A stretch of DNA of 64,000 nt from IMG/VR virus record IMGVR_UViG_3300010365_001407, positions 49,463 to 113,462 of that record; one strand, given 5' to 3'. Numbering within the stretch: the first letter of the stretch is position 1; each line of letters opens with the position of its first letter. The notes beneath the pieces were generated by a model. That model did no database searches and was not told the origin of the DNA. It saw nothing but the letters and a program-made list of their open reading frames with translations. The position numbers and the translations under genes were made by a program. Origin of the DNA: a virus. Lineage: Duplodnaviria; Heunggongvirae; Uroviricota; Caudoviricetes. Shown one piece after another: positions 7,553 through 54,900 of this stretch.

Positions 7553-7727
7553 CAAATAACTTTTAACTTAAAATTATGAATACACAAGAACCTCACTCAA
7601 TTTACTTGAGCGACTTGAAGAACTTGACGATGTAGTGCTTTGCACTCTCACTATGTGAGTACTTATAATTGTTTTCATAACTTATATATTAAAAATTTAT
7701 TCTTTTGTTTTACTTTTTTACTTTTAG

Positions 7728-7820
7728 TAGTCTGAACAGGAATCGAACCTGTGATGCGCGGAAGATACCCCTACTATATATAGGATCGACTACATAATGT
7801 TACCACTACATTATCAGACT
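7728..7820 (-). tRNA. tRNA-like element with irregular core, possibly Ile(UAU)-like or a pseudo-tRNA
   Basis: Canonical acceptor AGTCTGA/TCAGACT and T-arm ACAGG-TTCGATT-CCTGT, but 93 nt long. About 10 extra nt sit between the D-arm and the only good anticodon-like hairpin (TCCTA-TATATAG-TAGGG), which has A at position 33. Confidence 0.35.
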
Positions 7821-13220: not shown

Positions 13221-13562
13221 AATCAAATCATTGATTCGATCATTTATTTCATATAATAAACCCATACATTCTCTTTTCAAATCCTTTAGTCTATTAAAAT
13301 CACTGACACTAATTGGTTTATTTAGAGCATCATCTATACCTCTTATTTCTAATTCAATATTGTCTCTGATTAAACCAATCTCAAATAGAATATCTCCTTT
13401 GATTTCATTTATTAATAAACTAAAATAAGGATTACTCATAAGTCTTTCTTTGTATGTAGATACATTAAAACTTTTGATAATCCTTTTTAAGTTTTTTATT
13501 ACTTCTTCTTCACTACCTGAACTATGGAGTTTTTCAAAGAAGTCTTCTATGTTATGTTTCAT
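13212..13562 (-). CDS. hypothetical protein
   Basis: 116-aa ORF overlapping the start of the downstream homing-endonuclease gene. Confidence 0.45.
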   Translation of the reverse strand: MKHNIEDFFEKLHSSGSEEEVIKNLKRIIKSFNVSTYKERLMSNPYFSLLINEIKGDILFEIGLIRDNIELEIRGIDDALNKPISVSDFNRLKDLKRECMGLLYEINDRINDLILL

Positions 13563-14428
13563 GTTTTTAAATCTCTTTTAACTTTATAAATAAGTGATTG
13601 GCTAAATCCAGTATTTTCTTTTATCTTTTTAATATCTTGTCCCTCAATAAGTAGATTTTGTATAATGTTATATTTATCACATTTTAATGTTCTATCAACC
13701 ACTCTATCCCATTTTCTTTTCATTATAGGTAAATTTAGAGACAATGCTCTATTCTTAATTTTAAGAACTACTTTATTTTTAGTTATACATATTTTTGAAC
13801 ATCCATCAGGTGATATATAAAAATTCTTTTTTGATGATGTTAGTATATAATATGCTTCTTCTAAAAAATATCCCCATGAAGAATCACATTTAAGATATAA
13901 TAAACCCTTTTTACTTATACAACCATCACCATCTATAAATCCAATCATCATGCTAAATAGTTGGTCATTGGTTATGTTATAAGGTATTTTTACTGGATTC
14001 TTGGTTTTATTAGACAACCAATTAAAGTCATTAGATAATTTACTCACACTTTTTCTATCTGAAATTACAAGTCTTATATCATTTTTATACTCATATTTGC
14101 ATACTTTTCCTATATGTTCTTCAATTTTTAAAATATATTCTTTATCTTTTATTGATAAGTTTATCTGAATGTTGGATTTTTTGTATATATGACCATCAGC
14201 AAGTATAAAACCTATCCAATAACAAGTTATATTATCAGTGTAATCAATTATTTTTGAATATTTTGAGTTATTTTTTGATTCATTAGAACCTTTTTTTATT
14301 TTATTTAAACAAGCAATTTTTTGTATATAGTTCCAAGAAAGATTTGTATCTTTAATTATTTCATCTTTAGATTTTTTATTATAATTTGATTTCAAATAAT
14401 CAATCAATTTTATTTTAGATGGTTTCAT
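13559..14428 (-). CDS. LAGLIDADG homing endonuclease, two-motif single chain
   Basis: 289 aa; YWIGFILADGHI and MMIGFIDGDGCI LAGLIDADG motifs, HTH-like tail; promoter-like motif at 14430-14458. Confidence 0.75.
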   Translation of the reverse strand: MKPSKIKLIDYLKSNYNKKSKDEIIKDTNLSWNYIQKIACLNKIKKGSNESKNNSKYSKIIDYTDNITCYWIGFILADGHIYKKSNIQINLSIKDKEYILKIEEHIGKVCKYEYKNDIRLVISDRKSVSKLSNDFNWLSNKTKNPVKIPYNITNDQLFSMMIGFIDGDGCISKKGLLYLKCDSSWGYFLEEAYYILTSSKKNFYISPDGCSKICITKNKVVLKIKNRALSLNLPIMKRKWDRVVDRTLKCDKYNIIQNLLIEGQDIKKIKENTGFSQSLIYKVKRDLKT

Positions 14429-28800: not shown

Positions 28801-29028
28801 AGTCAAAATGGATTAAACTATCAATATATTGATTTGAATAATTCAACTCAAACAGTTAAACATGTTAAAAAGTTAAAATTCTTTGTAGAAAATGAATCTG
28901 AAAATAGACCATTTACATTCACTCTTAAATTTAACTTAAACAGAAATAAAGTTGCAGTTAGAAAATTCAATAATATAGGTGGTGGACCTGCATATATTGA
29001 TGATTATTCAACAACAAGTAAAAAATAA
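25828..29028 (+). CDS. large virion structural protein (putative)
   Basis: 1066 aa; heads the structural block, gene order and size only. Confidence 0.55.
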   Translation: MAIQSSFPKVADQIISYNKNIVEILSKISSLTTTTESSVNLQIYDANGVLRNFTMPSFTSLKGEIDRLNNNINSLYGIDGAGSLIQTTTQNKYKKLVTVDLNRDPTPISSVGFISTFKSSPNWFFDSLMDPMISIELDLSNKIEDNVRKCLVRRYMVDFEKNADGSLTTNGQSALNSYNQLFRGNANIIISEFENWHKTTTGVLNAINPKFDEQIFDLEPNNLLYDGQFSVLRIQEDRLNKKLWYVLDTLEYLVVDAGQTKQLAVGDELIINTAKSSTKYKIIEVSTVESNPRVRVERLEGIEPIPVGIGTLKVYSDVIYTKKCRVSVGYNERNVLFIKPINTDNHLVAKKWSLGTGYYTNDLRLDSSSTANGLSMEQFYIDYVYDYGVVLQDLVAKKTPNILGGTPVAPALSVDNFKVVQINKHLTDSPDSNLVKQKHNYQLSLKSEIQQIQEAISSRNKTAKFTKYKSDSAKKQADLEIEGLVSKKDSKSKLLASVTQEIIDLSKDPKTKVEPQFNVRGFWTIPAAVITTGTRPQEIVQFRVQYRKVSKDGKESPVETYSITDSQSKAAFSNWSEYKTDARKRVYNSTTGEYTWQIEDVTSADTPNINQFDLPILPNERIEFRIKSISEVGWPEAAVESDWSDILTVDFPDDLNTVLNETDFILREATKEDLKTSMNAELSAKGLDEHLSDTVTVNNVTYHHEAKKVLSGFQDENGVSLDLYTYIKALTDRITSLEEKIKRAKGELEIIILRNNQEFIISNGSETTFNVECEDYLDSYTATGAPTGRVYQNNIYVIKDFVVKFRNKATESVLGLLSNRNYVDGSGTVYNSTAPQTFWVNNQDELKTVDVSGQTRTQLDNQYIWMVNYDSITQTTVSKLSENVGNAFNTDNSNSVTSVLSSTEYNLGYNESSILAFIGNNKSLLDPTKWNDSTISVASTTKFLTTIHPVVKDLESIQEVNSDKIHTVAAGDKNSIIVPLNIYFKMNSLDSSQNGLNYQYIDLNNSTQTVKHVKKLKFFVENESENRPFTFTLKFNLNRNKVAVRKFNNIGGGPAYIDDYSTTSKK

Positions 29029-29037
29029 TAAGTCATA

Positions 29038-32000
29038 TTGAAATCATTTGCAATATTAAGAACCAATGTTGGTTTAACAACTAATATAAAAATAATGATT
29101 GATACTAACTATAAATTAAGTTTAGATAGTATTGAATCAAATATGAATTTGTCTTTTGATAAGTTCAAAAAGGTCTCATTTAATAAGAGTAATTATTATG
29201 ATGAACTAATTCCTTATTTTTATAAAGATTTACCTGCAGAAACAGCATATAGTATAAAATATGAGAGTGATGCAGAAACAATGTCAAATGATTTTGCTTA
29301 TCAGTATGATGAGTTATATAACTATGGTGCAAGAAATATTATAGATAATAAAAATTACTCAGAAGAGTATGAATACTTTGCACCTCTTTATATTACTAAA
29401 ACAGGACTTCCTAAAAAGTTTATTGTATTTAGAGTAGATGAACCAGGTATTGGAACATTAACAACTGCAAATTTTAAAACAGAAATAATTAATAAATTAA
29501 AAACTGTTAAGTTATTTGACTTGACAAAAGAAAGTATATTTGGAGAATGGTTACACACTAACTTTATTGATAATAAATATTTTCCAGATTCACCATTAGA
29601 AATAGACTTTAGAAGTCTTGAGTTTTGTAGATGGAATGGTATTGATTATCAAAATGGTGGTTATACATCTAAGTCATTATTTATTGATGATATTTTAGAT
29701 GAAGAAAAAGAGATATTTGAACTTGAAAAGTTTGTATTTGACTCTTATAAAAACAATAAAGTTGTTTTTCCTAACATATTAAACTTATCATTTTTATTTG
29801 ATGATACACCTTCTACGCCAGAACAAAAAAGAAGATGGTCTATAAATAGATATTATGGATTTTATTTAGATGATTTAAAGTTGGTAACAACAATGTCATC
29901 TTATATACCTGTACCTTTAAAAAATGATATTATTGTTTTATCAGGTACTGATAGAAATATATTATCGTCACCAAGTGGTTATCCATTTGAAGAAGTTTGG
30001 ACTGATAAAAAGCCTTTTTATGTAGAGTATAGTGGTAAATATTATAAAGTAGAACAATATACTGAAACTATAACAAATCAACTAATTAAGATTAAAAATA
30101 CTACAGGTAATACATCAGTTGATAGAATGGAAAGAGACTTAGGATTTAGTTCATCTAAAAAACAAGCATCTACTGTTAAAATGGTTAATACTAAAAACCT
30201 AACAACAAATACAAAATCTGCAGTTGAGAATTATGGTGAGGTAATTGTAACTAAATATAGAATAATATCTGATTTAGATTTTGGTGGAATGACTTATTCA
30301 AGTTTCAATCAAAACTTTGGTGAAATTAAAAACAATCAATTGATTGATATGAGTAAAAATCCAATTTTAATAGATGGATTTGATAGTGCTGATATTTGGT
30401 TAATTAATATAGATGGTGTTTACCATAATTTAATTAATAGTGGTACTAATTCAATTAGTGTTAATAGTGATTACTCATTCCAATTTAATGAGAATAGTTA
30501 TACTTATAAAGTAAATGGTGTTGAAAAAACAATCAATACAATAGTTGACTTTAATAATCCACCTACAATATTTGATATTTACAAATTAAAACTTACAGAT
30601 ATTAAAGACTTTGATGATAGATTAGTTGATACTGAGTATTCTAAATATGAATATGAGAAGTCAACTGAATTAACAAATACTGATGAGACTAAGATGTATT
30701 TTGAAGATTTGACAAGTAAAACTGATCCAAGAGATTTAGATGACTTTGTTTATAAGAATGAAGTGGTTAAAATTCCTGTATCATCTGAGTACACTGCAAA
30801 TTATGAAACTTTTAAAGTTGATGATACAACTGGTAATTTATCAGAGTTATGGAGAAAGAACTCAGTTTATTGTAGATTTGGATTTCAAAACTCAATATCA
30901 GGAAATGACGTACCTTACTTATTAAATAATTCATTAATATTTGAAGATTATAATAGGACTGTAAATGTTTCTGATATTCATCCTAAAAGAATTGAAAGAA
31001 ATTTAGATTACTTTTATACAATAAACTCAGCAACATCATCATATTTACATCATACATTACATGTTGAGGGATTTACCTATAGTAGTATTGATAACACATT
31101 TAAGTTTGAGTTAGATAAATATTTGAACTTACAATATGATATGGTTTTAGGTACTTATTCTTATGATTACTTTAGTTATTTCTTTAGCAAACAAACACAA
31201 TTTTTAAATGGTGATATTAAGAAGAATACTAGAAAATACTCTTATTTTAATGTAGGTGATGACTCTGTACCTAATCATAGTTTATTTAGAGGTATTAGAT
31301 TTGATGTTTATAAAGTAGAAGGTGTTAACTTAAACTCTAATAATCAGATTGATAAAATTAACATATCAACAAATAATGATTTTGTAGATTATAAAATGTC
31401 TGTTTTATTATCTGATAATGATTATCAACCAATATTTTTAGATAATAATTCAAATCAAATTATTGGGTTGACATATTCTCCTAATCAATTAGAATGGAGT
31501 ATAATTGATGAGTGGAAAATGGATAAAGTTTATGCAACTGGTTCAGTTGTTATATTTGATGATATTTTATTTACTAATCCTAATGGTACTTTAGGACCTT
31601 GTGGACCTACAATTAACTTAAATGGTAATAATGTTATATCAAATCCAAGTAATCAAGGTTGGAATATTTATAGTGATGGAGTAAATAATGATAATAGAAT
31701 ATTTTGGTCACCAAGACAAAATGATACATTTATTTATAATTCTGGTGAGTATTGGCAAAAAAACTTTACAACAGAAACAGGAAGTGATTATATAAATTTT
31801 TGGATTCCACCAGATACACAATCTAGTTCTAATTATGGAACAGGAAGTATTGTAATGTATAACAATAAGGTTTATATATCTAATACATATAATAATAACT
31901 TTCATCCAAATCAAAAACAATGGATAGATATATCAACTATTAGTAAGTTTGATTCTAGTATAACATATTCTAAGTCAGATATAGTAATAAGTACTGATTC

Positions 32001-33339
32001 ATATTATATTTCATTAGTTGATAAAAACAAAGGAAATAATATTGAAAATAGCCTTGTATGGGAAAGAACTGTAAATAAACCAACTGCTGATTTATTTTAT
32101 TGGAAATTAATAGAGATTTGGAATCCAACTAAGAGATATGAACAACAAGCTTATGTTGTTCATAATAATGTATTATATAGAAATTTTAGACGTCAAGTAA
32201 CTCAAATGCAAGTACAGCAACTTTTTAGACCTCAAAATCCTTATTTAGAGATGTTACCTGGTTTTGAACCAGGAGTTGATGTTGATTGGGCTAGACAATA
32301 TAGTTTAGTTCCAGATACAGATTATACTTATAGCATATATAGTAATCCAATTATTTTATTAAATGATAGATATTATATGGCAACTAATAAAACAGAAGAT
32401 TCAACTCTGGATAATGGTATTGTAATCTATATCAATAAAAAGTGGGAAAATATATTGGTTAATATAAATATATCAGATAATACATATACTAATGTTTCAT
32501 CAACTAATAGAGATGATCTTTATAATGAGTTATATAAGAAATTAACTGCTACTAATTTTATGACTGCTATAAATGATATAACTAATAAATATGGATTTAC
32601 AGATTATGTATCTTATATAGTTATTGATAATGATAATACAATTAGTAAGTATAGTTATACTAATAATATTACTAGTCTACCTTATATAATTAAATGTGAA
32701 GGACCTGATAGTTTAGATGTTAAAATACAATCTTTGTTAAAAAGACCTATTTACTTACCTAATCCATTAAATCCAATTAAAAAGTTAGAAAAGGGTAAGA
32801 TATTAAATATTAATCAATTAAACTACTATAATGGTAATCCAGTTGGTGTAAATATAATTGAAAATAGATTTGCTCCTAAAGTAACTGAGAATTATCATGG
32901 TGCTACAAATTATATAAAAGATACTATTTATAGATTCAGTGGTTATTATATGCCATTATTTTATGATATAGAATTATTTAAAAGAGATTATGAGTACAAA
33001 GAAGTAGGTAATTATTTATTTGATACTTCATTAACAAATTTTGGTATTATTAAAGAAAGAAAAGTTAGAAAGATAAATAGAAAAGGAAGTATTCTAAAAT
33101 TAAAAGATAGTCCAGATGAGAAATCTATCTATCCAATGTTAGATGAATTTGGTTACTCTATCTATGACTTTTTCATATTCTCATCAACTTGGGATTTAAA
33201 GTATTACTTAGAAACATCTACATTAACTAAGGCAAATAAAGATTATTTAGAGAAATATACAATAGATGAAAATATTGTAAATAACAATAATATAGTAATA
33301 CCTATTACAATACCAACAAATATTGGACCATCAAATTAA
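29038..33339 (+). CDS. very large virion structural protein (putative)
   Basis: 1433 aa, N/Y/T-rich; follows the previous gene after a 9-nt gap. Confidence 0.55.
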   Translation: MKSFAILRTNVGLTTNIKIMIDTNYKLSLDSIESNMNLSFDKFKKVSFNKSNYYDELIPYFYKDLPAETAYSIKYESDAETMSNDFAYQYDELYNYGARNIIDNKNYSEEYEYFAPLYITKTGLPKKFIVFRVDEPGIGTLTTANFKTEIINKLKTVKLFDLTKESIFGEWLHTNFIDNKYFPDSPLEIDFRSLEFCRWNGIDYQNGGYTSKSLFIDDILDEEKEIFELEKFVFDSYKNNKVVFPNILNLSFLFDDTPSTPEQKRRWSINRYYGFYLDDLKLVTTMSSYIPVPLKNDIIVLSGTDRNILSSPSGYPFEEVWTDKKPFYVEYSGKYYKVEQYTETITNQLIKIKNTTGNTSVDRMERDLGFSSSKKQASTVKMVNTKNLTTNTKSAVENYGEVIVTKYRIISDLDFGGMTYSSFNQNFGEIKNNQLIDMSKNPILIDGFDSADIWLINIDGVYHNLINSGTNSISVNSDYSFQFNENSYTYKVNGVEKTINTIVDFNNPPTIFDIYKLKLTDIKDFDDRLVDTEYSKYEYEKSTELTNTDETKMYFEDLTSKTDPRDLDDFVYKNEVVKIPVSSEYTANYETFKVDDTTGNLSELWRKNSVYCRFGFQNSISGNDVPYLLNNSLIFEDYNRTVNVSDIHPKRIERNLDYFYTINSATSSYLHHTLHVEGFTYSSIDNTFKFELDKYLNLQYDMVLGTYSYDYFSYFFSKQTQFLNGDIKKNTRKYSYFNVGDDSVPNHSLFRGIRFDVYKVEGVNLNSNNQIDKINISTNNDFVDYKMSVLLSDNDYQPIFLDNNSNQIIGLTYSPNQLEWSIIDEWKMDKVYATGSVVIFDDILFTNPNGTLGPCGPTINLNGNNVISNPSNQGWNIYSDGVNNDNRIFWSPRQNDTFIYNSGEYWQKNFTTETGSDYINFWIPPDTQSSSNYGTGSIVMYNNKVYISNTYNNNFHPNQKQWIDISTISKFDSSITYSKSDIVISTDSYYISLVDKNKGNNIENSLVWERTVNKPTADLFYWKLIEIWNPTKRYEQQAYVVHNNVLYRNFRRQVTQMQVQQLFRPQNPYLEMLPGFEPGVDVDWARQYSLVPDTDYTYSIYSNPIILLNDRYYMATNKTEDSTLDNGIVIYINKKWENILVNINISDNTYTNVSSTNRDDLYNELYKKLTATNFMTAINDITNKYGFTDYVSYIVIDNDNTISKYSYTNNITSLPYIIKCEGPDSLDVKIQSLLKRPIYLPNPLNPIKKLEKGKILNINQLNYYNGNPVGVNIIENRFAPKVTENYHGATNYIKDTIYRFSGYYMPLFYDIELFKRDYEYKEVGNYLFDTSLTNFGIIKERKVRKINRKGSILKLKDSPDEKSIYPMLDEFGYSIYDFFIFSSTWDLKYYLETSTLTKANKDYLEKYTIDENIVNNNNIVIPITIPTNIGPSN

Positions 33340-39469: not shown

Positions 39470-40117
39470 ATGACATATATTTACTCACTTGAACATCCTC
39501 TCACTGGAGAGATAAGATACATTGGGAAAACAAGAAGTCTTAAACAAAGATATTATTCACATACAGAAAATTATTCAAATAAAAGAAATAAATCTCATAG
39601 AACTAATTGGATCAATGGTCTCAAAAAAGATGGATTAAAACCAATTATAAAAATACTTGATGTAGTTGATGATAATGAATGGAAATTTTGGGAAATATAT
39701 TGGATTTCTCAATTTATAACTTGGGGATTTAATTTAGTTAATCATACTTATGGTGGTGAAGGTTCACAATTTGGTAATATAACATCTTTTAAAAAAGGTA
39801 ATATACCTTGGAATAATGGTACTGCTAAACCAAAAGAAATTAAAGAAACTAGAGGAAAATCTGAAAATAGTATAAAAACACAATTTAAAAAAAATCATAT
39901 CTCTTGGAATAAGAATAAAAAAGGTTATAAATTAACAGGTAATAAAAAAGCCAGACCTGTTTTGCAATATGATATAGAAGGTAATTTTATAAAGGAATAT
40001 GATAGTTGTTTAGATGCTGCAAATGAATTTGGATGTATTCTAGAAAATATAAGAAAAGTATGTGTTGGTAAGGGAAATACTGCAAAAGGCTTTATATGGA
40101 AATATAAATTTATATGA
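39470..40117 (+). CDS. GIY-YIG homing endonuclease
   Basis: 215 aa; YIYSLEHPLTGEIRYIGKTRSLKQRYYSHTE GIY-YIG motif; basic C-terminal half with NUMOD-like KxGxxxW repeats. Confidence 0.7.
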   Translation: MTYIYSLEHPLTGEIRYIGKTRSLKQRYYSHTENYSNKRNKSHRTNWINGLKKDGLKPIIKILDVVDDNEWKFWEIYWISQFITWGFNLVNHTYGGEGSQFGNITSFKKGNIPWNNGTAKPKEIKETRGKSENSIKTQFKKNHISWNKNKKGYKLTGNKKARPVLQYDIEGNFIKEYDSCLDAANEFGCILENIRKVCVGKGNTAKGFIWKYKFI

Positions 40118-42184: not shown

Positions 42185-42994
42185 ATGAAAATATCAAATA
42201 TAATTAGAGAGTCTATTAAAAATGATACATTATTTTTGGAACCAATTGAAATTTCAAAAAAATATAAAATTTGCCTATCAACAGTATATAATATTAAAAA
42301 GTCTGAAAATATAGAATCTAAAATACCAAATAAAAAATATAATCTGAATGATGAATATTTTGAAAATATTGATACTGAGGAAAAGGCTTATTGGTTAGGA
42401 TTTTTATATGCAGATGGATATGTAAGGATAAAGGATGGTAGATCTGGAGAGTTAAGATTAAAATTAAAGACTGGTGATAGGAAGCATATTGAATTGTTTA
42501 ATAAACACATAGGTTCTGATTATAATATTAAAGATATTACAACAAATGTAAAAGGAGTAGATAGTTTTGCATCATTTGTATCAATTTATAACACAAAATT
42601 AGTCAATGATTTAATTAAACATGGATGTGTTAGTAAAAAATCATTTATAGTAGAATTTCCAAATATTGATAAATCATTAGAAAGACACTTCATAAGAGGA
42701 TTTTTTGATGGAGATGGATGGTTTTTTATTAGAAAAATAAAAAATGGTATATATCCAAATTTTGGTATATGTTCAGCATCCAAAATAATAATAGATCAAA
42801 TTTATAAAATATTAGAAAATAATAATATAATATGTAGGTTTGAAAGGTCTGGTGTTACATATAGAGTGTGTAACACATGTAATGACTATATGGAAAAAAT
42901 ACACAACTATCTATATTCCAATTCAAGTGTTTATCTAGATAGGAAATTTAATATATTTTCAGATTATCTATCTGACAAAAAACCACTCATTTGA
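42185..42994 (+). CDS. LAGLIDADG homing endonuclease
   Basis: 269 aa; YWLGFLYADGYV and IRGFFDGDGWF motifs. Confidence 0.75.
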   Translation: MKISNIIRESIKNDTLFLEPIEISKKYKICLSTVYNIKKSENIESKIPNKKYNLNDEYFENIDTEEKAYWLGFLYADGYVRIKDGRSGELRLKLKTGDRKHIELFNKHIGSDYNIKDITTNVKGVDSFASFVSIYNTKLVNDLIKHGCVSKKSFIVEFPNIDKSLERHFIRGFFDGDGWFFIRKIKNGIYPNFGICSASKIIIDQIYKILENNNIICRFERSGVTYRVCNTCNDYMEKIHNYLYSNSSVYLDRKFNIFSDYLSDKKPLI

Positions 42995-44972: not shown

Positions 44973-47900
44973 ATGAGTACATTTTCATCAGCAAATATAA
45001 TACAAAAAAACATAATCACCAAACCTTATCTTCTAACAACAGAAGAATTAAATCAAATAGGTTCTGGTATTAATTTAGTAGGTTATGACTTTCTAAAAAC
45101 ATTACCTACACCAATAGATGAAACTATTGTAAACTTTAGATATGGTAACCCAAGTAGTCCAAGACTATTGAACTGGGTTGAAGATTATACCATTGCAGGA
45201 GTTAAATATACTTTATTTTACACAGAAGTAAATTCAGGTTTAAAAGTAGGTGATAAGGTGTTTATTATTAATGGTGCCTATGATAGTAATTTATTAATTC
45301 AACAGGATAAATATAAGAAAGGTAGAGATGGTTACAAAGTTCTTTTTGTAGATGAATGTATAATTGTATTAGATATAGAATTTATTGGATGGTTGCCTTC
45401 AAGTGAGACATCTGAAAATCAAGATGTTTTTGATGATTTTATTAAAGTTTATTATATTAATGACCAAAATGATTTTATTCATGTAAATAGACAAATTACT
45501 ACAAGAAATTATAATTTTGATTTTAAATTTAATCCATATCAAAATAATCTTATATTTACTGATGTAAATACTTTTGAAAGTGTTGATGGTTGGGGTGAAA
45601 ATGCAGGTTTAACTGGTGGTCCAGGTTTCTTTATAAAAAATGGAACTTATAGTTGGATAAATATAACTACTGATTTTATGTCAGGTTCATATTCTTTGGT
45701 AGATACATATTCAAATAATAAAATACTTATATTAAATGGTGGATTTGCAATTAATGGATTTGAATTTAAAGAAGACTCTGTTTATAAATGGGATTCTACC
45801 TTATTAACTTGGGTAGTTAATGTTAAACATGAGAATAACAATCCACCAATAATTACTAAGTCTAATTTTAGAAGAGGTAAATTTGATGGTCAATGGAATG
45901 GTGGACTTTATGGAACAAGTGATGAAAGAATAATTTGGAATAGTTCAACTGCAACATGGAATTCAGGAACTTTATTAAATACAATATGGCAGACTGGTAT
46001 AATGAATTCATTTTATAGTCAACCAGATAGTTACTTTGCAGAGTTTGATTACTCTTTTGCAACTTCTTCCGCACCTTATGGTTTACCTTATCAAAAAGTT
46101 AATAACCCTGATAATAATGGTTATGGTTATAACTTTGTTATTAATTCAGATATTCAAAATGCTGTTATAAATAATGGTAATGTAACCAATTCAAAATTAG
46201 GTGCAAGTGCAAGTTCATATCTTGTTGTTGAAAAATATTTAGATGGTACATTTGATATTAATAATTTTGGTACAGCAAGTGGACTTACTGTAAATAAAGC
46301 TCTTTTTGATAATTGTAAATTTATAAATGCAAATATTGAAAATACAGAGATTAGAAATTCAAGAGCTGTAAATTCAAGATTTAATAAAGTTAAATCAGTT
46401 AACTCACATTATAAATCTTCATTATTTTTAAATTCAAATTATATTAGTGATAATATAATTAAAGTTCTTGATTATGATGAGTTTACATATAGTAGTTTTA
46501 ATAATGCAACAGAAACTCATAAAGTTTATAAGTTTTATATAAATAAGAGAAGTTATGAAAAGTTTAAATTAAAAGATAGTTTTTATATTAAAGGAATTAA
46601 AATAAATGATAATACTAGTAATTTAATAAACTTCTTTGATACTAAGTTTAAAGTAGGTCCTTGGAAAGAGTATTATGATTATAACTTAGTAGATGCTAAT
46701 GAATATGGATTTCAAAAATTTTCACTTACATATAATGCATTTGTTTCCACACCTAAAGAAAATGAGTATAGATATTCAGTTAATGGTGGAAATTTTTTAC
46801 AAGATATAAAAGGTAAAGATTATTACTCAGTTGATATTTTTGTAAAAAAAGATTTTGATTTGTTACCACTTATAAATATTAATGACAAACCAGCAAAGGA
46901 TTTTAATGATACTTTTATGGGAACTGGTATACTAGATTTTTCAGAAGCTTATATTGTTAACTCTGATTTTGAAAGTGGGGTATTTGAAAACTCAAACTGG
47001 AATAGTGGTAATCATATAAATTATAGTAATGATAATAACATAACTAAAGGTTTAATAAGTGGTGGAGGTTTATATAACTTTACATTATCAAGTTCTGCTA
47101 CAAATAGTTTATTTATAGAAAATACAATATCTAATTTAGGTGTTGATAGTGAAGTTGAATTGGATTACTTTGAAGATGATAGTATTGTATTTTTAAATGC
47201 AGTAGATTATGATACAAGAGGTAAGGTTACTGGTTTCACAATAGTAAATCAAGGTGCTGGTTATACAAGTTCTATATTAACAACATCAGGAGGTTCTGGA
47301 ACAGGATTAACTATTGATGTACAAGCATCAACAATTGGTTCTGTTAATGGAATTCTGTTTGTTCCAGATAATAATAATAATTATTATGATGCTACCTTAG
47401 GTTATACTACAAGATTTACAAATGTTGTAACTCAGAATGGTCCAACTACTGGTGTAGGATTGGAAGTATTAATAACAGTTAGTAACTTAGCCCCATATTT
47501 TATAACATCTATATCAGTATCTAGTGCAGGTTATGGTTATAATATAGGAGATGAATTAGAAGTTCAACATGTTAATAGTAATGAACCACCTGGAACAACA
47601 AAATTTACAATTACTTCCATATTAAATGGTGGGGTTTTAAATACTTCTACACAATCATATCAAGGTTTAGGTTATCAAGTTGGTGACTTAGTTACATTGG
47701 TTGGTGGTGTTGTACCATCAATTATAGAAATAAATAGTGTTGAAGGAACATTAACAAGATTACCAGATGCATATAAAATTAAAAGAACTATAAATGGTAC
47801 AACACAACAACTTGAATTAATATCATTAACTGGTCTACCTACATTATTAGATAATGGATTATTTTTAACAACAAATGCTGAGAATAAGTATGGTTATTTA

Positions 47901-50399
47901 CATAAAACTAAATTCAATAGATCTAGATTAATTACAGGTATATTTAAAAGAGCTTATATTACTAATTCATTATTGAGAGATGAATCTTTTGATGTTAGTG
48001 ATAAAGACTTTAATAATATTAAAAAGTTAAAAAATTTAATATTTATAGATACTATATTCTCAAATAACTCTAATATTTTATCTAAGGCAACTTATATGAA
48101 TTCATCTTTTGTAGGTGGTACTGATATATGGGATAATGGTATAGTTTATGATTCTATTTGGAATGGAGGAAACTTTAAAAATGGATTAGTAAAAGAATCA
48201 ATTTGGGTAGATGGTATATTTAGTGATGGTCTATTTTATAACTCAAGAAGTTTTAATAATGACTTATTAGGTGTTGACTATAATGAAAATGTAAAAACCA
48301 GATATTATAAAAGTGGTACTGAATCTAATGCAAGATTTTCATGGCAAAATGGTACATTTTTAAATGGTGAATTTTATAAAAGTGATTGGGAAAATGGAGT
48401 ATTTAATGGTGGTAAGTTTTACTATTCTAAATTTTATAATGGAATATTTAATAATGGTGTTATAGGTGATAGATCAATTCCTATAGATGATACTTGGTTC
48501 TATAATGGAACTATAAATTATGCAGTTGTGGAAAATTCCAAAATTGTTTCTCAGAAGTATAATGGTATTTCAAATTCTGTTATTACTTGGAACAATGGTA
48601 TATTTAATTCAGGTGTTTTTGGTACAAATGATACACAAATGGTGACTTTGACTAACCCAGGTGGAGGCACCACAACCAGTTTTGTAGTTAATACTGCTAC
48701 TTGGAGTTATGGTATATTTAATGGTGGTGAGTTTAGAAATAAAGCAAAATGGAAAGATGGTATATTTAATGGTGGTAAATTCTTATCTAACTATGGATTA
48801 AATTTACCTGACAATAGTTTACAACCTAAAGAAGACTATTCTTGGGAGTATGGTATATTTAATGGAGGTGAGTTTGGTAATGCAAACACTATAACTAACT
48901 CAAATTGGTTTGATGGTGAGTTTAATGGAGGGCAGTTTAAGGGAAGAGTTTGGAATAATGGTATATTCTCATTTGGAGAATTTTTAGGAAGTGGTGGTAT
49001 TGCAATTGGTGGAACATCATCAATTGTATTACAATCTAATCCAGGTAAATTTGTAAACTCATATAATTTCCCACCATTTGGATCTATAAGAAGATACTAT
49101 GGTCTATGGAGAAATGGTTATGTAACTGATATTAAAGATAAGTATATTACAGATAAAAAATTATATACTGATATTAAAAGGTCAAGTGATACTACTAAAG
49201 TTGTCAATAAAGCTATTTTAAAAAATATGCTTTGGGAAAAAGGTATATTTTCACACCCAGGTGGTGAGATGATTAACTCAGTTTGGTTGGATGGTACATT
49301 TGAAAGTGGTAGATTTTTATCAAGTTCATTTAATCCTTATGTAACAAGAAATGGTGTTAATAGATTTAATTTTAGTGATACTTGTTCTTGGAAGAATGGT
49401 ATATTTGATGGTGGTGAGTTTAATATTTCTACTTGGGAAAATGGAACATTTGTTTCAGGAACTGCAGTAGGTATGAATTGGAAAAATGGTATTGTTAATT
49501 ATATGAATGCATATAATGTATTCTGGGAAGATGGTTTATGGAGAAATGGTAACTGGAATGGTTCTTATTTTAACTTAACTAAAACAGGTTCAGTTATTGA
49601 TAATTATGCATTACAAGTTCTAAACAATGGCATGCCACTTGGTGTTACATCATCATCTTTACATGTTTGGAATATATTTCATAATGAATCATTAAGTGAT
49701 TATACACAATCTAATACAACAGGATTTGTATTTTCAGCCAATACTAATGATGATAGTCCACCTGCTTGGAGTTCAAATAGTAGTTTTGGAGAAGTTGGTA
49801 CAATACCTACAACTTCTTCAATTACTATAACTTGGGATCCTGCAGATCCTGAGTTTGATTTATTACCAGAACCACTTACTACTGAGAATAGAATTGGTTC
49901 AAATACTTCTATGAAAATTTTATTAACAAGTGTACTTAATAATTTAATAAATGCAGAATGGCAACTAAGTTCAGATGGTACAAATTGGTCTTCAAGTCCT
50001 GTAACTATTGCAGTTGAAAATATATTTACACAAATGCCTATAGGTGATAACTATTTCAGAATTGAGGATACAATAACCACTGGATTATCAATAAGTACAA
50101 TATATTCTAATGTTTTAAAATACACAAAACAATCATACTCATTTTTAGTTTCAGTAGGAGTCAAATCATGTCAGTATTCAAATTTTGTGGGTCAAACAGT
50201 ATTTTCAACTCAGTTTACAGAAACTTTATATTCTGATTCACCTACATTAACATATAATACAATCTTATATACAAATCCAAATCTTACAATACTTACAAAT
50301 GTAACAACAATAAAATTAGAGACAGGATTAATAATTTTTGAGTTGGTTTCAGGTGAAATTTTGAATTTGACTCCTGTAGGTGAGATTTGTTTTAACTAA
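44973..50399 (+). CDS. giant virion protein (tail fibre / appendage-like) with W-x-x-G-x-F-N-G-G-x-F repeats
   Basis: 1808 aa; central region has many degenerate repeats such as WENGVFNGGKFY, WKDGIFNGGKFL, YGIFNGGEFGN and WFDGEFNGGQFKG. Gly/Asn/Ser/Thr-rich. Confidence 0.6.
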   Translation: MSTFSSANIIQKNIITKPYLLTTEELNQIGSGINLVGYDFLKTLPTPIDETIVNFRYGNPSSPRLLNWVEDYTIAGVKYTLFYTEVNSGLKVGDKVFIINGAYDSNLLIQQDKYKKGRDGYKVLFVDECIIVLDIEFIGWLPSSETSENQDVFDDFIKVYYINDQNDFIHVNRQITTRNYNFDFKFNPYQNNLIFTDVNTFESVDGWGENAGLTGGPGFFIKNGTYSWINITTDFMSGSYSLVDTYSNNKILILNGGFAINGFEFKEDSVYKWDSTLLTWVVNVKHENNNPPIITKSNFRRGKFDGQWNGGLYGTSDERIIWNSSTATWNSGTLLNTIWQTGIMNSFYSQPDSYFAEFDYSFATSSAPYGLPYQKVNNPDNNGYGYNFVINSDIQNAVINNGNVTNSKLGASASSYLVVEKYLDGTFDINNFGTASGLTVNKALFDNCKFINANIENTEIRNSRAVNSRFNKVKSVNSHYKSSLFLNSNYISDNIIKVLDYDEFTYSSFNNATETHKVYKFYINKRSYEKFKLKDSFYIKGIKINDNTSNLINFFDTKFKVGPWKEYYDYNLVDANEYGFQKFSLTYNAFVSTPKENEYRYSVNGGNFLQDIKGKDYYSVDIFVKKDFDLLPLININDKPAKDFNDTFMGTGILDFSEAYIVNSDFESGVFENSNWNSGNHINYSNDNNITKGLISGGGLYNFTLSSSATNSLFIENTISNLGVDSEVELDYFEDDSIVFLNAVDYDTRGKVTGFTIVNQGAGYTSSILTTSGGSGTGLTIDVQASTIGSVNGILFVPDNNNNYYDATLGYTTRFTNVVTQNGPTTGVGLEVLITVSNLAPYFITSISVSSAGYGYNIGDELEVQHVNSNEPPGTTKFTITSILNGGVLNTSTQSYQGLGYQVGDLVTLVGGVVPSIIEINSVEGTLTRLPDAYKIKRTINGTTQQLELISLTGLPTLLDNGLFLTTNAENKYGYLHKTKFNRSRLITGIFKRAYITNSLLRDESFDVSDKDFNNIKKLKNLIFIDTIFSNNSNILSKATYMNSSFVGGTDIWDNGIVYDSIWNGGNFKNGLVKESIWVDGIFSDGLFYNSRSFNNDLLGVDYNENVKTRYYKSGTESNARFSWQNGTFLNGEFYKSDWENGVFNGGKFYYSKFYNGIFNNGVIGDRSIPIDDTWFYNGTINYAVVENSKIVSQKYNGISNSVITWNNGIFNSGVFGTNDTQMVTLTNPGGGTTTSFVVNTATWSYGIFNGGEFRNKAKWKDGIFNGGKFLSNYGLNLPDNSLQPKEDYSWEYGIFNGGEFGNANTITNSNWFDGEFNGGQFKGRVWNNGIFSFGEFLGSGGIAIGGTSSIVLQSNPGKFVNSYNFPPFGSIRRYYGLWRNGYVTDIKDKYITDKKLYTDIKRSSDTTKVVNKAILKNMLWEKGIFSHPGGEMINSVWLDGTFESGRFLSSSFNPYVTRNGVNRFNFSDTCSWKNGIFDGGEFNISTWENGTFVSGTAVGMNWKNGIVNYMNAYNVFWEDGLWRNGNWNGSYFNLTKTGSVIDNYALQVLNNGMPLGVTSSSLHVWNIFHNESLSDYTQSNTTGFVFSANTNDDSPPAWSSNSSFGEVGTIPTTSSITITWDPADPEFDLLPEPLTTENRIGSNTSMKILLTSVLNNLINAEWQLSSDGTNWSSSPVTIAVENIFTQMPIGDNYFRIEDTITTGLSISTIYSNVLKYTKQSYSFLVSVGVKSCQYSNFVGQTVFSTQFTETLYSDSPTLTYNTILYTNPNLTILTNVTTIKLETGLIIFELVSGEILNLTPVGEICFN

Positions 50400-50427
50400 A
50401 GTACATAAAAATAAAATAAAATATAAT

Positions 50428-51852
50428 ATGTCAAATATAATAAACTTAACTTGGAATGGTGCAACTGATGACAATGGTATATCAGGTTATCAAATCCAAT
50501 GGAGAACATTAACAACATCACCTTGGTCTCAACCTATTTTAGTTAATCATAATCCCAATTCACCAGGAAATACACCAACAAGTGGAGGTGGTAGTTATAG
50601 TCATACTATAACTCAATTACGTGACCATACATTTAGAATAAGAATAATAGATAGTGTAGGTCAATTTAGTGCATATAAAACAGTTGAAGTACCTGTTGAT
50701 ACTTCAACTATATTAATTTCAAGTCAAGGTGTTGCATTTGGAAACAATTTAGTATGTACTTCAAATACATTAAATCCTATAAATCCTATATTACTTAAAA
50801 ATAATAATGTAACTGCTAATACAATAGTAGATGATTTAACTTTTGTCAAAAATACTGATAATAGTACATTCAATGGACAAAGCCAGTTTTGGAGAATATT
50901 ATTTAATAACATAAGTTATAAATGTCTAATAAATACATTAGGTATGATTGAGTCACATGTAGAATGTTCTTCTAATGTTAAAACATTTAATATATCAAGT
51001 CAAGGTTATGATTCAAATATAACAAACGGTCCAATATGTGTAGCAGACTTAAATAACACAATATATTTTAATAATGAATTAGCAATTGGTACTATAATAT
51101 ATACTACTTTAAATGTGAATGGTACTTTATCAAATCTATTTATTGGTAATAATAGATACTATTTAATTAGTGATAATGATTTTTACTATATTATTCGAAT
51201 ACAGAGTAATGGTAGTGTATCATCTATTCAAGATTATACTGCTGTCTGTCAGTTAGATGATCCAAATAATGTTATTGTTATTTGTTGTTTTGTAAAAGGA
51301 ACTAAAATAACAATGTTTGATTATACAACTAAAAATATTGAAGATGTTAAAATTGGTGATATTGTAATAACTTATAATGAAGAAACTAAATTACAAGAAC
51401 CTGGTGAAGTAACAAATATTGCAAGTCCAGTAAAAAATAATATAGTTGAATATAAATTATCAAATGATGTAATAATTAAATCTACTACTTGTCATCCTTA
51501 TTGGGTTATTGGTAAAGGTTGGTCATCATTTGATAAGAAACTAACTAAGAAGTTATATGATTTTGATGTGGAACAAATATTAGAAAATGATATTTTACTT
51601 ACAATAGATAATAAAAAAGTTATAGTTGATAAAATAACTGAACTAATAACTAAAGAAGTTACTACATATAATTTAGAAATATTGGGTAATCATACATATT
51701 ATGCAAATGGTATTTTAGTACATAATAAAACTGCTATTCCTCCTGCACCAAACAGGTATGATGAATTTGGTAATCAAACTTCTGCTTGGACTACATGGAA
51801 TAACTTGTATAGTAGTGTACCAACTTGTACTATTGCTGCTCAAGAACCATAA
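50428..51852 (+). CDS. fibronectin-III-like protein with a C-terminal Hint (intein/hedgehog-type) autoprocessing domain
   Basis: Internal ATG at 50428 chosen; the track ORF starts at 50380 inside the previous gene. FN3-like LTWNGATDDNGISGYQIQWRT. Hint blocks CFVKGTKITMFDY...DVKIGDIV (A), TTCHPYW (B) and TYNLEILGNHTYYANGILVHN (F/G), followed by Lys, not Cys/Ser/Thr. Confidence 0.6.
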   Translation: MSNIINLTWNGATDDNGISGYQIQWRTLTTSPWSQPILVNHNPNSPGNTPTSGGGSYSHTITQLRDHTFRIRIIDSVGQFSAYKTVEVPVDTSTILISSQGVAFGNNLVCTSNTLNPINPILLKNNNVTANTIVDDLTFVKNTDNSTFNGQSQFWRILFNNISYKCLINTLGMIESHVECSSNVKTFNISSQGYDSNITNGPICVADLNNTIYFNNELAIGTIIYTTLNVNGTLSNLFIGNNRYYLISDNDFYYIIRIQSNGSVSSIQDYTAVCQLDDPNNVIVICCFVKGTKITMFDYTTKNIEDVKIGDIVITYNEETKLQEPGEVTNIASPVKNNIVEYKLSNDVIIKSTTCHPYWVIGKGWSSFDKKLTKKLYDFDVEQILENDILLTIDNKKVIVDKITELITKEVTTYNLEILGNHTYYANGILVHNKTAIPPAPNRYDEFGNQTSAWTTWNNLYSSVPTCTIAAQEP

Positions 51853-51895
51853 AGTTTCATCAACACTATAAAAAATAATCAAAGTGATAAACTTA

Positions 51896-51911
51896 AATTA
51901 ATATATAGTTT
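51896..51911 (+). promoter_or_regulatory. AATTAATATATAGTTT promoter-like motif
   Basis: Abuts the ATG at 51912. Confidence 0.35.
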
Positions 51912-54900
51912 ATGCAAAACTCATCAACATTTTATGATAGAAATTCTTTACAAAGTTGGGAATTTAATATATTAAATAATGGTATAACTAGAAAACTAAG
52001 AAATTCACCTATTCCATTGTATATAAATAGTGAATTTACAAATGCTAATTTATATAATCAAAAGAAGAATTATCAATTTTTAACTACTATTAAAGGTGGA
52101 TCTGCATCTACACTAGATATACAATTAAGTAATCCTTTTAAGGCAGGTTCTGTAAAAGAATTATCAATTTTGGAAAATAGTGAAGTACAATTTTATACTT
52201 ATGCAAGTCCAATTTCATCTGAAAGTTCTGTTAATATAATTAGATATGGTGCATTAGATACATTTACATCAAGTTATATAAAAGCATCATCAATTAGAGA
52301 GATAGACTTTTTAATAAATGGATATAGAGAGTTTAGATACTTAAATGTTTCTGAGAATGATGAAAGTCAACCAAATGGATGGTGTTATGAAATTAACTCC
52401 ACTTCTAATACTGGTTCATATAACTGGTATTTTTCATCAACATCAAGTGTTATTCCACCAACATACTCAACTTTTGGATCTGGATTAGAAGCAGTTTCAC
52501 CTAATAATGACTATATAGCAACTTTAATTGATTATGATTATTTCAATTTAGATTTTACTTTTAATTTCACTGGTGGTAATTCAAATGATAAAATGGAAGC
52601 ATTTTTGGTAAATAAAAATGACTTAAAATTGGGTAGAAATTCTTGGGGTAATCCAATTAACTTTGAAGTAAGTGGTTTATCTGGTGTGACTAGTTCACTT
52701 AATACAATTGCTACATTTAGTCAAATAAATTTAGCAGCTACAAATATTAATGGAACTAAAAGATATTTGGTTTTTAGACCAAGTATGTCAACTTTACCAA
52801 GAACTACAACATATGTTGCAAATATATCAATTGTAAGTTTAGTTGGTGGATATAATCCATTAAACAATCTACAAGTAGTACCTGCAACATCTTCTACAAC
52901 TAGCAATATAGATATTAATATAATAGATTCAGTATATAATTTTCAATCTGTTTCAAATGGTGTAACATTTAGTTTGGCATCAAAAATAGGAAATGGTTAT
53001 TTTAAAGCAGGTATTTGGGAAAATGGAGTTTGGAATAATGGTTGGAGAGATGATACAGTAGTGGCAGATTTTGATGATATTTACTCTGCATTTCTTTATG
53101 CATATGATGTATCTTGGAAAATAAAAATTAGTGGTTCAAAGGCTTCATGTAATTCATTTAAAGTTGGTGATAAAGTAGCAATTGGTAATATTATAGCAAT
53201 TGATATAAATGAAAATAGAAATCTATTAAGAGATTATTATAATATAACAGAGGTATATATAAATCCTGATAATTCTGGAACTAATTGGATTGAAGTTAGT
53301 TTAAATACTACATTTCCATATAGAAGAATTGAAAAAGATTCATCTAATCACAAAATTAAGATAACTAAAAACATTTGGTTATCAGGTGCATTTTTTAATG
53401 GTTATTTCTCAGGAGTTTGGAATAATGGGTTATTTAAAGGTTATCCTAAAATTACAGAAATGTTTGATACTCATTGGATTGATGGTTTTTTTAATGGAGG
53501 ACATTTTAACTCTACTTATCCAGATTTTTATTTTACTGATATAGAATCTACTGAAAATTGTCAAGTTAGTAATATTACTTTAGTATTTGGTACTGCAACA
53601 CCTCCAAGAACTTCTGGACATAATTTACTTCCAGGGGATTATATAATAATTGAAAAGGATATATCTTATATTCCTAATTCAAATAATACTACATCAACTG
53701 CTATATTATATAATCCAGAATATAATGGTATTGCTAAAGTTTTGGGAGTTAATGGAAATAATGTTGTTGTTGATAAGAAACAAAATCAGATATTAGCATT
53801 TCCAGAATCTGGTAAAGTTACTAGATATACTGCATCTAGTGTTATACAAAACTTTAAGTTTTATGATACTAATAGATCGTTATTAAAATCAAATGAAAGT
53901 TCAATTTCATCAAGTATATTTAGTTTTAATTCTTGGATAGATACTAATTATGATACTACAAGATCAGTTACATTAGGTAGAGATTTTAGGTCATATGAAC
54001 CACTAACTCGTAAATCTGTAAATAGAAATAATTTGTATGGTTACCCTACATATGATGTACTTTCAAGTGCATCACGTTTTAGAAATTCTTTTGACTTAAA
54101 TTATGGATTGTATAAGTTAGGAACTAAATATAAATTATTTACTGATTTTATTGGTGATGGTTCTGCATTTAATGAACCATTTGATCCAAAACTAGATAAT
54201 ATATCTAATTTTTATAATGCTGGTTGGACTTTTTCAACTAAACCAAATTGTTCTACTGATTTAACATTTAATAGATCTGAAGCAGTTATATCAGCAGATA
54301 GTGCTTCAATTATTTCTACTACAATACAAGATTATATAGATGCTGGTGTTACTGGAAATGAATTGTATTTAACTGCAACTAACTCAGGTGCAATATTAAA
54401 TAATGATAAAATTAATGTAGCAAAAACAAGATATAGTGTAGTAGAGTTTGATGTTGTTACATATAGCATTACCAATTCTAAATTTATACAAACTAATCAA
54501 AGGTTATATGATTCAGAAACTGAACTCAGTGGTCCACCTTTAAATCTTGCAACACAATCAAATATTTCAGTTGATAATTTAACACTTACTGCAAGTAATA
54601 TTTTCACATTTGATGTTGGTTCTCAAGGAACTTCAATGATTCCAGAAAATAACTTTTTTGATGGATTTGATGGTGAAGTTTGGTCTGTTGATAAACAATC
54701 AGATGGTAAGATTATAGTGGCTGGTAATTTTACTGAATATAATGGTTCACCAACACCAAAACCTAAAATTTGTAGAATAGATAATGGTGTATTAGATATG
54801 TCATTTAATCCTGATATTAATGATTTTAATCCTACATATATAGATTTTATAAAAGTGTTAGTTGTTAAAGATTATTTACCAATGTTTGATAAGATATTTT

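Follow-up and report, generated by a model that had tools for sequence, protein, structure and literature searches.

A gene at positions 50428 to 51852 (plus strand) of a 64,000-nucleotide stretch of Caudoviricetes phage DNA (positions 49,463 to 113,462 of IMG/VR record IMGVR_UViG_3300010365_001407, the whole stretch being called the window here) encodes a protein of 474 amino acids (aa) that ends in an intein-like Hint domain without a nucleophile at the +1 position. Judged from sequence and homology, this domain and the short tail behind it probably act as a cassette resembling type A bacterial-intein-like (BIL) domains, which would release the 286-aa N-terminal part of the protein (N-domain) by N-terminal autocleavage, with C-terminal cleavage being optional. 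Among related phages the Hint domain has been swapped, degraded or lost on repeated occasions, so that it behaves as a dispensable self-removing cassette, and its catalytic residues are lost in none of the 31 in-frame copies compared.

Identity of the Hint Domain

The features of the open reading frame (ORF) and of its C-terminal part are as follows.

50428 to 51852, plus strand: whole ORF, 474 aa and a stop codon, comprising an FN3-like domain, two beta modules, a linker, the Hint domain and a tail (translation; orthologue alignment A1)
51283 to 51285, plus strand: Cys286 at position -1, with the carbonyl from which the thioester would form; conserved as Cys in 30/31 orthologues
51286 to 51726, plus strand: Hint domain, residues 287-433, 147 aa, without endonuclease (hidden Markov models including TIGR01443; phmmer; AlphaFold2 and Foldseek)
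51286 to 51288, plus strand: block A nucleophile Cys287, present in 31/31
51484 to 51495, plus strand: block B TTCH, residues 353-356 (T353, H356); T353 in 30/31, His in every Hint-bearing row of the alignment
51664 to 51726, plus strand: blocks F/G TYNLEILGNHTYYANGILVHN, residues 413-433, matched by TIGR01443; Asn415 at block F position 4, then H432 and N433
51727 to 51729, plus strand: Lys434, the +1 residue, not a Cys, Ser or Thr nucleophile; Lys in 29/31 rows and in 34/35 tails
51727 to 51849, plus strand: 41-aa tail KTAIPPAPNRYDEFGNQTSAWTTWNNLYSSVPTCTIAAQEP, under weak constraint, 12-68 aa long among orthologues, modelled with low confidence
51826 to 51828, plus strand: Cys467, the single cysteine of the tail; exactly one Cys in 35/35 orthologue tails, whatever their length

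The block A stretch CCFVKGTKITMFDY...DVKIGDIV spans residues 286-312 and reads CC-FVKGTKITMFDY...DVKIGDIV, and a Hint fold with a block A nucleophile, the TxxH of block B and blocks F/G places the domain in the Hint superfamily. The NCBIfam model TIGR01443 (intein_Cterm) is matched above its cut-off (20.4 versus 15.6), with the VHN of block G covered, while the Pfam Hint-type families all score below their own cut-offs (PT-HINT, PF07591, at E 2.5e-5 and 25.0 bits against a gathering threshold of 27.7; Hom_end_hint at 3.8e-4; Intein_splicing, Vint and Hint_2), and Pfam Hint (PF01079) gave no match to the target protein at E<=1. Among PDB sequences, phmmer recovered BIL2 of Tetrahymena thermophila BUBL (6Y75/6TMM) at 5.5e-8 and the Clostridium thermocellum BIL (2LWY) at 2.7e-4. 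A domain model built with AlphaFold2 from 35 sequences (predicted local distance difference test, pLDDT, 82) led Foldseek to the same pair in the PDB: BIL2 at the top (E 6e-12, target-normalised template modelling (TM) score 0.87, root-mean-square deviation 1.8 Å), then the C. thermocellum BIL (2e-10), followed by the DnaB, gp41-1 and RecA mini-inteins and Hedgehog. There were 59 matches at E<=1e-3, the best 50 of the 59 all being BILs, inteins or Hedgehog. BIL2 and 2LWY hence outrank every canonical intein in both searches, a ranking that stands at just 23-27% identity. The Hint assignment is well beyond chance, and the closest solved relatives appear to be BIL domains, with canonical mini-inteins next.

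The Pfam family AXH (PF08517) also matches residues 287-393, above its cut-off (3e-11, 44.3 versus 33). Since this match is carried by every intein-like protein recovered, and since it stops halfway through a Hint domain that is complete, covering the N-terminal half, it is read as a probable cross-hit between related folds. It constitutes an annotation trap for Hint domains, seen at window positions 51286-51600 and in the orthologue P0038, which bears the JGI name 'Ataxin-1 and HBP1 module (AXH)'. No second Hint domain was found within the 64-kb window.

An earlier, first-pass annotation made from the letters of the window had placed the Hint blocks at these coordinates and residue numbers, and translation and alignment agree with it throughout. 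Its description of a mini-intein-sized Hint without endonuclease is borne out by the length, the TIGR01443 score and the fold matches to BIL2 and inteins, as is the missing +1 nucleophile, with Lys434 in the window protein and Lys, Val or Leu in the 31 orthologues. Where it had left the choice between a bacterial-intein-like and a Hedgehog-type autoprocessing domain, the BIL type is favoured by the matches and by an invariant His-Asn pair, and the Hedgehog type is disfavoured by the lack of a PF01079 match; the profile search that it had proposed gave a sub-threshold result for PF07591 and none for PF01079. Canonical splicing, which it had called impossible, is indeed precluded by the absence of a +1 nucleophile, though ligation of the flanks has been reported for type A BILs (PMC4031507). 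The core of that annotation holds, strengthened by the comparative evidence.

Residue Conservation, Selection and the Tail

Conservation was counted over the 31 Hint-bearing rows of alignment A1, whose proteins are 34-100% identical to the window protein and come from phage contigs of 90-633 kb. C287, H432 and N433 are invariant (31/31), T353 and the -1 residue C286 are each kept in 30 rows, N415 at block F position 4 in 29, and the catalytic residues persist down to 34-37% identity. At the +1 position Lys is found in 29 rows, Val and Leu in one each, and Cys, Ser or Thr in none, while in a wider set Lys begins 34 of the 35 tails. The +1 Lys is thus no accident but a signature of the wider Hint subfamily described below.

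Pairwise Nei-Gojobori ratios of nonsynonymous to synonymous rates (dN/dS) are 0.17-0.52 for the Hint domain, 0.23-0.59 for the FN3-like domain, 0.56-0.78 for the duplicated beta modules (aa 93-275, the fastest-evolving structured part of the protein) and ~0.6-3, from few sites, for the tail. The Hint values indicate that the intact domain is under purifying selection, and the tail is barely constrained. Most orthologue tails have a W..W motif, and their single Cys co-occurs with the -1 Cys, P0092 being without both.

Loss, Decay and Exchange of the Hint Cassette

Scans for the locus in IMG/VR and in metagenomes gave 2 and 4 loci, and the comparative DNA was mostly obtained through look-ups of exact proteins. 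Syntenic orthologues of ~280 aa stop inside the linker that precedes the Hint domain. At one such locus (L003) Hint and tail are cleanly absent; another (L001) carries a TAG stop, followed by an out-of-frame STCCFVKGTKITMFDYTTKNIEDIKIGDLVI (a decayed Hint start), an internal deletion and a remnant of the tail. The cluster of N-domains at least 90% identical to that of the window has 14 members, of which 10, drawn from several sources and samples, are short forms with a length of 236-296 aa. The DNA of short forms has one extra C, which turns GATCCAATT into GATCCCAATT (GATCC(C)AATT) and results in DPN followed by a stop codon. Downstream of this stop, L007 keeps a Hint domain that is intact but in the +1 frame, and L011 one that is intact up to the contig end (39 aa); the domain is disrupted by further frameshifts in L018-L021 and shortened by an internal deletion in L023-L025. 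Stops or frameshifts in the linker are hence found in L001, L003, L007, L011 and L018-L025; every Hint-removing lesion seen is a stop in the linker. The Hint-less syntenic alleles L003, L001 and L023 are also without the tail.

The many diverse short forms ending in DPN-stop prompted the idea of programmed +1 frameshifting at GATCCCAATT, as a +1 slip on CCC-A would restore the full-length protein. It was rejected, since the downstream Hint carries extra frameshifts or deletions in L018-L025.

The cassette has also been exchanged. P0014 and P0006 are 97% identical across the N-domain and the first 19 Hint residues, after which P0014 continues with a foreign Hint core (~25% identity; its best other match reaches 38%) and a +1 Val before the shared tail resumes. 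When the window is compared with L026, the synonymous divergence (dS) of the Hint domain is 0.034, which is 4-10 times lower than the 0.13-0.36 measured for the N-domain, for the tail and for the genes on either side, and indicates that the cassette was exchanged between alleles recently. Searches of other genes gave no near-identical Hint; outside the orthologue family, the closest one is 50-55% identical. Alleles at least 90% identical in the N-domain with intact, frameshifted, decayed, swapped or missing Hint domains amount to a natural experiment, by which it can be asked whether the Hint is a selfish passenger or an assembly or ligation device.

Proposed Mechanism and Alternative Outcomes

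As proposed here, the last 188 residues (Hint residues 287-433 and the short tail) would constitute a type-A-BIL-like cassette at the C-terminus of an accessory protein (FN3/beta-sandwich) that is encoded by a huge phage with low GC content. Cys287 would attack the carbonyl of Cys286 in an N-to-S acyl shift, assisted by T353 and H356 of block B, and thereby generate a thioester. With no Cys, Ser or Thr at +1, no branched intermediate could form, hence the thioester would be resolved by hydrolysis or by an amine, which would free the 286-aa N-terminal protein, and the invariant H432-N433 could additionally cyclise and so remove the tail. The mature functional product would be the N-domain ending at or near residue 286, with Hint and tail removed and dispensable. 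Such a cassette, when in frame, would have to keep cleaving itself, which would explain both the purifying selection and the invariant catalytic residues, and its sole harmless route of loss would be to end the ORF in the linker, matching the pattern in the relatives. It would behave as an intein-type passenger that is selectively maintained just while it is fused in frame and is swapped between alleles by recombination. The restriction of lesions to the linker, together with the lack of any catalytic loss in 31 in-frame copies, favours N-terminal autocleavage.

Several points weigh against this proposal. We infer the chemistry, the cleavage and any role in the virion from homology and conservation, and the Pfam Hint-type scores remain below their gathering thresholds. 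Simple N-terminal cleavage would require neither the invariant His-Asn nor the near-invariant +1 Lys nor the single Cys of the tail, and these features hint at a further reaction, for instance ligation or conjugation. Some short forms (P0262, P0270 and P0028) may be artefacts of contig ends. The dN/dS values are rough estimates from a handful of pairs, with 90 synonymous sites in an AT-rich genome, and purifying selection on the Hint domain could reflect a positive function rather than mere harmlessness.

Two alternatives would give the thioester a more elaborate fate. In non-canonical splicing of the BIL type, Asn433 would cyclise and the alpha-amine of Lys434 would attack the thioester at C286, so that the N-domain is joined to the 41-aa tail and the Hint domain is excised. 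The invariance of His-Asn fits this route, which has been described for type A BILs, as do the features that the tail retains (one Cys in 35/35 and W..W in most); cleavage products dominate in type A BILs, however (PMC4031507), the tail varies from 12 to 68 aa at a dN/dS of ~0.6-3, many members of the family end right after HNK, where ligation would add a single Lys, and the tail is missing too from Hint-less alleles and thus unneeded for the function of the N-domain, which together make such splicing unlikely. Quite unlikely, too, is a thioester-driven conjugation, in which the Hint domain would serve as a single-use ligase that moves the C-terminus of the N-domain onto the epsilon-amine of a lysine, yielding an isopeptide cross-link in the virion; the acceptor could be Lys434 itself or a lysine of a partner such as a giant neighbouring protein. 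Such chemistry is reported for the top solved match, BIL2, which is said to form an isopeptide with the epsilon-amine of Lys and to conjugate its N-terminal flank to other proteins (PMC8616854), and it would suit both the +1 Lys (34/35 tails and 175/277 units of the wider subfamily described below) and the position of the gene, which shares a conserved block with two giant proteins (1300-1850 aa). The domain is just ~23% identical to BIL2, though, the acceptor is hypothetical, P0014 (+1 Val) and P0092 (+1 Leu) manage without the Lys, and covalent attachment cannot be essential where Hint-less alleles are common. These +1 Val and Leu variants and the frequent Hint-less alleles speak against an essential role for either ligation or conjugation.

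The two remaining alternatives are a domain that does not process at all and one that splices normally. A Hint domain co-opted for structure or binding, with the full-length 474-aa protein as the functional form, would have precedents, as Hint-fold domains without processing exist and the ataxin-1 AXH module matches residues 287-393, and it could account for the Asn at block F position 4. Asp is usual at this position in class 1 inteins. A structural role would not need the thioester and Asn-cyclisation residues that are invariant in the 31 orthologues, however, and the losses always fall exactly at the linker, hence this explanation is very unlikely. Normal splicing as a class 1 mini-intein is extremely improbable: the ~30% identity to canonical phage helicase inteins and the fold matches to the DnaB, gp41-1 and RecA mini-inteins speak for it, but the +1 residue is Lys, Val or Leu in all orthologues, the Hint-less alleles have no contiguous N- and C-extein, as the tail is gone too, and the Hint domain lies at the end of its protein rather than within a housekeeping protein, at a site that is conserved. 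The +1 residue and the Hint-less alleles already refute class 1 splicing, barring the use of a distal nucleophile. N-terminal autocleavage thus remains the favoured reading.

Protein Architecture and Genomic Setting

The remaining parts of the protein and its neighbours in the window are the following.

50428 to 50703, plus strand: FN3-like domain, residues 1-92, with the motif NLTWNGATDDNGISGYQIQWR; Pfam fn3 below cut-off, predicted beta-sandwich with pLDDT 85-93
50704 to 50970, plus strand: beta module R1, residues 93-181, with invariant C110 and C180 (alignment A1, predicted structure)
50971 to 51255, plus strand: beta module R2, residues 182-276, with invariant C204 and C274 (alignment A1, match to the R1 profile)
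51256 to 51282, plus strand: disordered linker, residues 277-285 (pLDDT <50 at 277-283), site of the ORF-ending lesions of the relatives
44973 to 50399, plus strand: upstream gene, 1808 aa, conserved syntenic neighbour (ORF call, synteny)
51912 to 57320, plus strand: downstream gene, 1802 aa, DUF5122 repeats and a P_proprotein domain, conserved syntenic neighbour (Pfam, synteny)
57353 to 58006, plus strand: 217-aa ORF with a weak match to the baseplate family Gp10_C (PF21939, E 1.5e-4, 23.1 bits versus a cut-off of 27)

The ATG at 50428 is the likely start of the protein, as ~25 orthologues in alignment A1 start at the same MSNIIN; an alternative GTG at 50380 would give a 490-aa product, 16 residues longer. 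No Shine-Dalgarno-like sequence is present upstream of ATG 50428. The first-pass annotation had called the whole an FN3-like protein, which applies to residues ~1-92, where the bacterial FN3 signature is present at sub-threshold support (Pfam fn3, E 0.036, 14.7 bits, cut-off 25), the rest of the N-domain consisting of the R1 and R2 modules. Structures of single FN3 domains match the model of residues 1-92 with probability 1.0 at E values of only ~1e-2 (2ic2_B, target-normalised TM score 0.61). R1 and R2, of ~90 aa and two cysteines each, form an internal duplication, since a profile of R1 finds R2 (independent E 1.2e-4); neither module gave a significant match to PDB folds, and in the window the FN3, R1, R2 and tail profiles matched the target ORF alone. 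In the viral structure library BFVD, the N-domain is matched by uncharacterised marine phage proteins at 1e-7; its fold also resembles proteins of a Cellulophaga phage and of virus NIOZ-UU157, with weak matches to T5 pb3 and to tail proteins of various kinds.

An extra N-terminal module of ~110-145 aa (MPxFLxNSKxQIIF..., columns 1-170 of alignment A1) precedes the FN3-like domain in P0012, P0016, P0022, P0024 and P0026 (582-625 aa) and is missing from the window protein. A link by gene fusion to the giant upstream protein was rejected, as a 173-aa ORF in L001 resembles neither the C-terminus of the 1808-aa protein nor the P0012-type extension.

The window is phage DNA of low GC content (~26%), which contains a cluster of 9 tRNAs, a NAD ligase, an SbcC-like nuclease and, away from the Hint gene, matches to PHROG virion proteins. 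The conserved gene order around the locus is M16 peptidase, Dam methylase, a ~1600-1800-aa protein, the Hint protein, a ~1300-1850-aa protein, a ~200-aa protein, DnaJ and SbcC, and homologues of the giant neighbours occur in 634-735-kb records named 'uncultured phage'. In two of these the gene of interest is missing and it is therefore accessory as a whole: the giant-gene homologues abut with nothing between them in LR745206.1 (L017, 296000-308000; 634 kb), and the two giant-gene matches lie ~240 bp apart in LR756502.1 (642 kb, ~326-333 kb).

The first-pass annotation had set the gene between two structural genes of about 1800 aa, of which the sizes are confirmed, while the evidence for 'structural' amounts to the sub-threshold Gp10_C match and the weak tail-protein folds. 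The Gp10_C match of the 217-aa ORF, on record in the same weak form for L016, is the sole direct hint of a tail or baseplate block; PHROG and PDB sequence searches with both giant neighbours gave no match, nor did the target itself match a structural PHROG. The suggested self-cleaving step in virion maturation is weakened as an essential function, as many close relatives keep only the N-domain and have lost Hint and tail, and such a role is speculative.

A shared A/T-rich leader motif (…GTGATAAACTTAAATTAATATATAGTTT-ATG) stands before genes of the block (window 50400-50427 and 51853-51911; L003 8847-8898) and is also kept in the relatives L001 and L003; it may be a late-promoter or translation-initiation element of the phage. 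A scan for promoters and terminators showed no excess over shuffled expectation. Free-standing homing-endonuclease-like genes (GIY-YIG with NUMOD1, LAGLIDADG, phrog_4645) lie at 39470-40117 (+), 42185-42994 (+), 13559-14428 (-) and 58702-59787 (-), some close to the Hint block, and might promote recombination at the locus. Within the 9-tRNA cluster at 7.2-9.2 kb, ARAGORN predicts a tRNA with a four-base anticodon (cgat; 7727-7820, minus strand), which could be frameshift-suppressor-like, intron-containing or a prediction artefact. Two further very large ORFs are present at 25828-29028 (+), of 1066 aa, and at 29038-33339 (+), of 1433 aa; the former matches phrog_29329 (unknown function) at 3e-87 and the latter matches nothing.

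The Wider HN-K Hint Subfamily

The window domain is part of a very large Hint subfamily, termed HN-K here: a complete scan with the Hint domain recovered 7301 representatives of clusters when E<=1e-3 was the limit, and 1250 when it was E<=1e-10. Units were counted in the 138 nearest representatives, 94 of which carry 2-8 Hint units. Of the 273 units whose C-terminus is complete, 253 end in His-Asn, and the +1 residue of 277 units is Lys in 175, Arg in 17 and Cys, Ser or Thr in 27. Many of these HN-K proteins end immediately after HNK. Most members form tandem arrays at protein C-termini, in which inner units end in HNK or HNR and the Cys of the next unit follows directly (P0037, P0042-P0114, P0121-P0258). 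Tandem-Hint proteins of ~734-765 aa occur in T4-like marine phage contexts with 2OG-Fe oxygenases and thymidylate synthase (L012/L013, 6001-8205). In P0109 and P0153, a Hint domain 50-55% identical to that of the window ends an RHS-like protein, with 3-10 residues past HNK and no toxin domain; the source of P0109 labels it as Flavobacteriaceae, and the N-terminus of P0153 resembles a signal peptide. The Flavobacteriaceae RHS-like Hints, the missing Shine-Dalgarno sequence and the fold matches to the Cellulophaga phage and NIOZ-UU157 proteins hint at a Bacteroidota host.

A broader proposal, tentative and as a whole rather doubtful, is that HN-K Hints form a large, undescribed class of phage-borne terminal cassettes, for which N-terminal self-cleavage at the 3' end of a gene would suffice for harmlessness, and which would spread and be exchanged by recombination, stack in tandem and, like inteins, be gained, decay and be lost again; instead of this or besides it, the conserved +1 Lys, the -1 Cys and the single Cys of the tail may take part in a thioester relay by which the N-domain becomes joined to a lysine, as in BIL2, with isopeptide cross-links arising in virion assembly. 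Small, endonuclease-free, cleavage-biased Hints are also of interest for protein engineering, for example as self-cleaving tags and for thioester generation.

Comparison with Known Systems

Type A BIL domains were reportedly described by Amitai in 2003 and Dassa in 2004. The window domain shares with them the mini-intein size, Cys1, the TxxH of block B and a C-terminal His-Asn without Cys, Ser or Thr at +1, as well as the location in a variable, non-housekeeping accessory protein, whose orthologues may have kept, swapped, degraded or lost the Hint; by fold, the C. thermocellum BIL is the second-best match. Type A BILs are known to sit in variable, non-conserved regions of non-housekeeping proteins (PMC5874633) and to yield mainly cleavage products; even with no nucleophile at +1, their flanks can reportedly be ligated, through an aminolysis that follows C-terminal cleavage (PMC4031507, PMC5874633). 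The window domain differs from them in being encoded by a huge phage, not a bacterium, in its C-terminal placement with a short tail only, in the near-invariant +1 Lys (the HN-K signature) and in the Asn at block F position 4. Type B BILs, which have no terminal His-Asn and no similarity to intein block G (PMC4031507), are set apart by the VHN of block G found here. The chemistry is thus expected to be type-A-BIL-like, not Hedgehog-like.

BIL2 ranks first among the solved structures in sequence and predicted fold alike, and its Hint processes the N-terminal flank with a lysine amine as acceptor (PMC8616854). It lies between ubiquitin-like domains of a eukaryotic polyprotein, unlike the window domain, whose N-terminal flank consists of FN3 and beta modules, and the two are just ~23% identical. 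The PT-HINT domains of polymorphic toxins, among the best Pfam Hint-type matches, likewise occur towards the C-terminal end of large proteins that are secreted or variable, and are thought to free what follows, an architecture that P0109 and P0153 resemble; their score here is sub-threshold, the 41-aa tail has no toxin domain and many relatives stop after HNK.

Class 1 mini-inteins (gp41-1, Ssp DnaB, Vibrio phage helicase) resemble the domain in fold, in blocks A, B, F and G, in ~30% identity to the Vibrio phage helicase inteins and in their presence/absence polymorphism, decay and allelic exchange, but here there is no +1 nucleophile, conserved C-extein or homing endonuclease, and the position is terminal, not internal. 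The nearest annotated phage match is a Vibrio phage helicase intein with VVVHN|C at its junction; an apparent likeness of the window tail to the helicase extein, as tblastn ran to residue 461, was dismissed as a chance extension, those inteins having a +1 Cys. Hedgehog Hog/Hint domains share the C-terminal position, a short region past the Hint core, the fold (1AT0, E 4e-5) and the expected release of an N-terminal product via a thioester. Hedgehog domains are not known to have a C-terminal His-Asn. The window protein keeps this pair, has no PF01079 match and no sign of an adduct, and its junction is Cys-Cys versus Gly-Cys in Hedgehog (PMC5874633). By analogy, a self-removing C-terminal module is also seen in the S74 intramolecular chaperone, an autocleaving domain of phage tail spikes and fibres that removes itself after its job (PMC7824862), although its fold is unrelated, its chemistry uses a Ser-Lys dyad and there is no sequence match.

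The known homes of Hints without a +1 nucleophile are bacterial variable or secreted proteins, polymorphic toxins, ciliate polyubiquitin loci and Hedgehog. In the literature searched, no description of C-terminal Hint cassettes on phage tail-module-like proteins was found, and a search for Hint or BIL domains at the C-termini of phage structural proteins or in tandem arrays returned canonical phage inteins only. Compared with the BILs described so far, what differs is the phage setting, the terminal position and the HN-K signature, and the mechanism proposed is not a new one.

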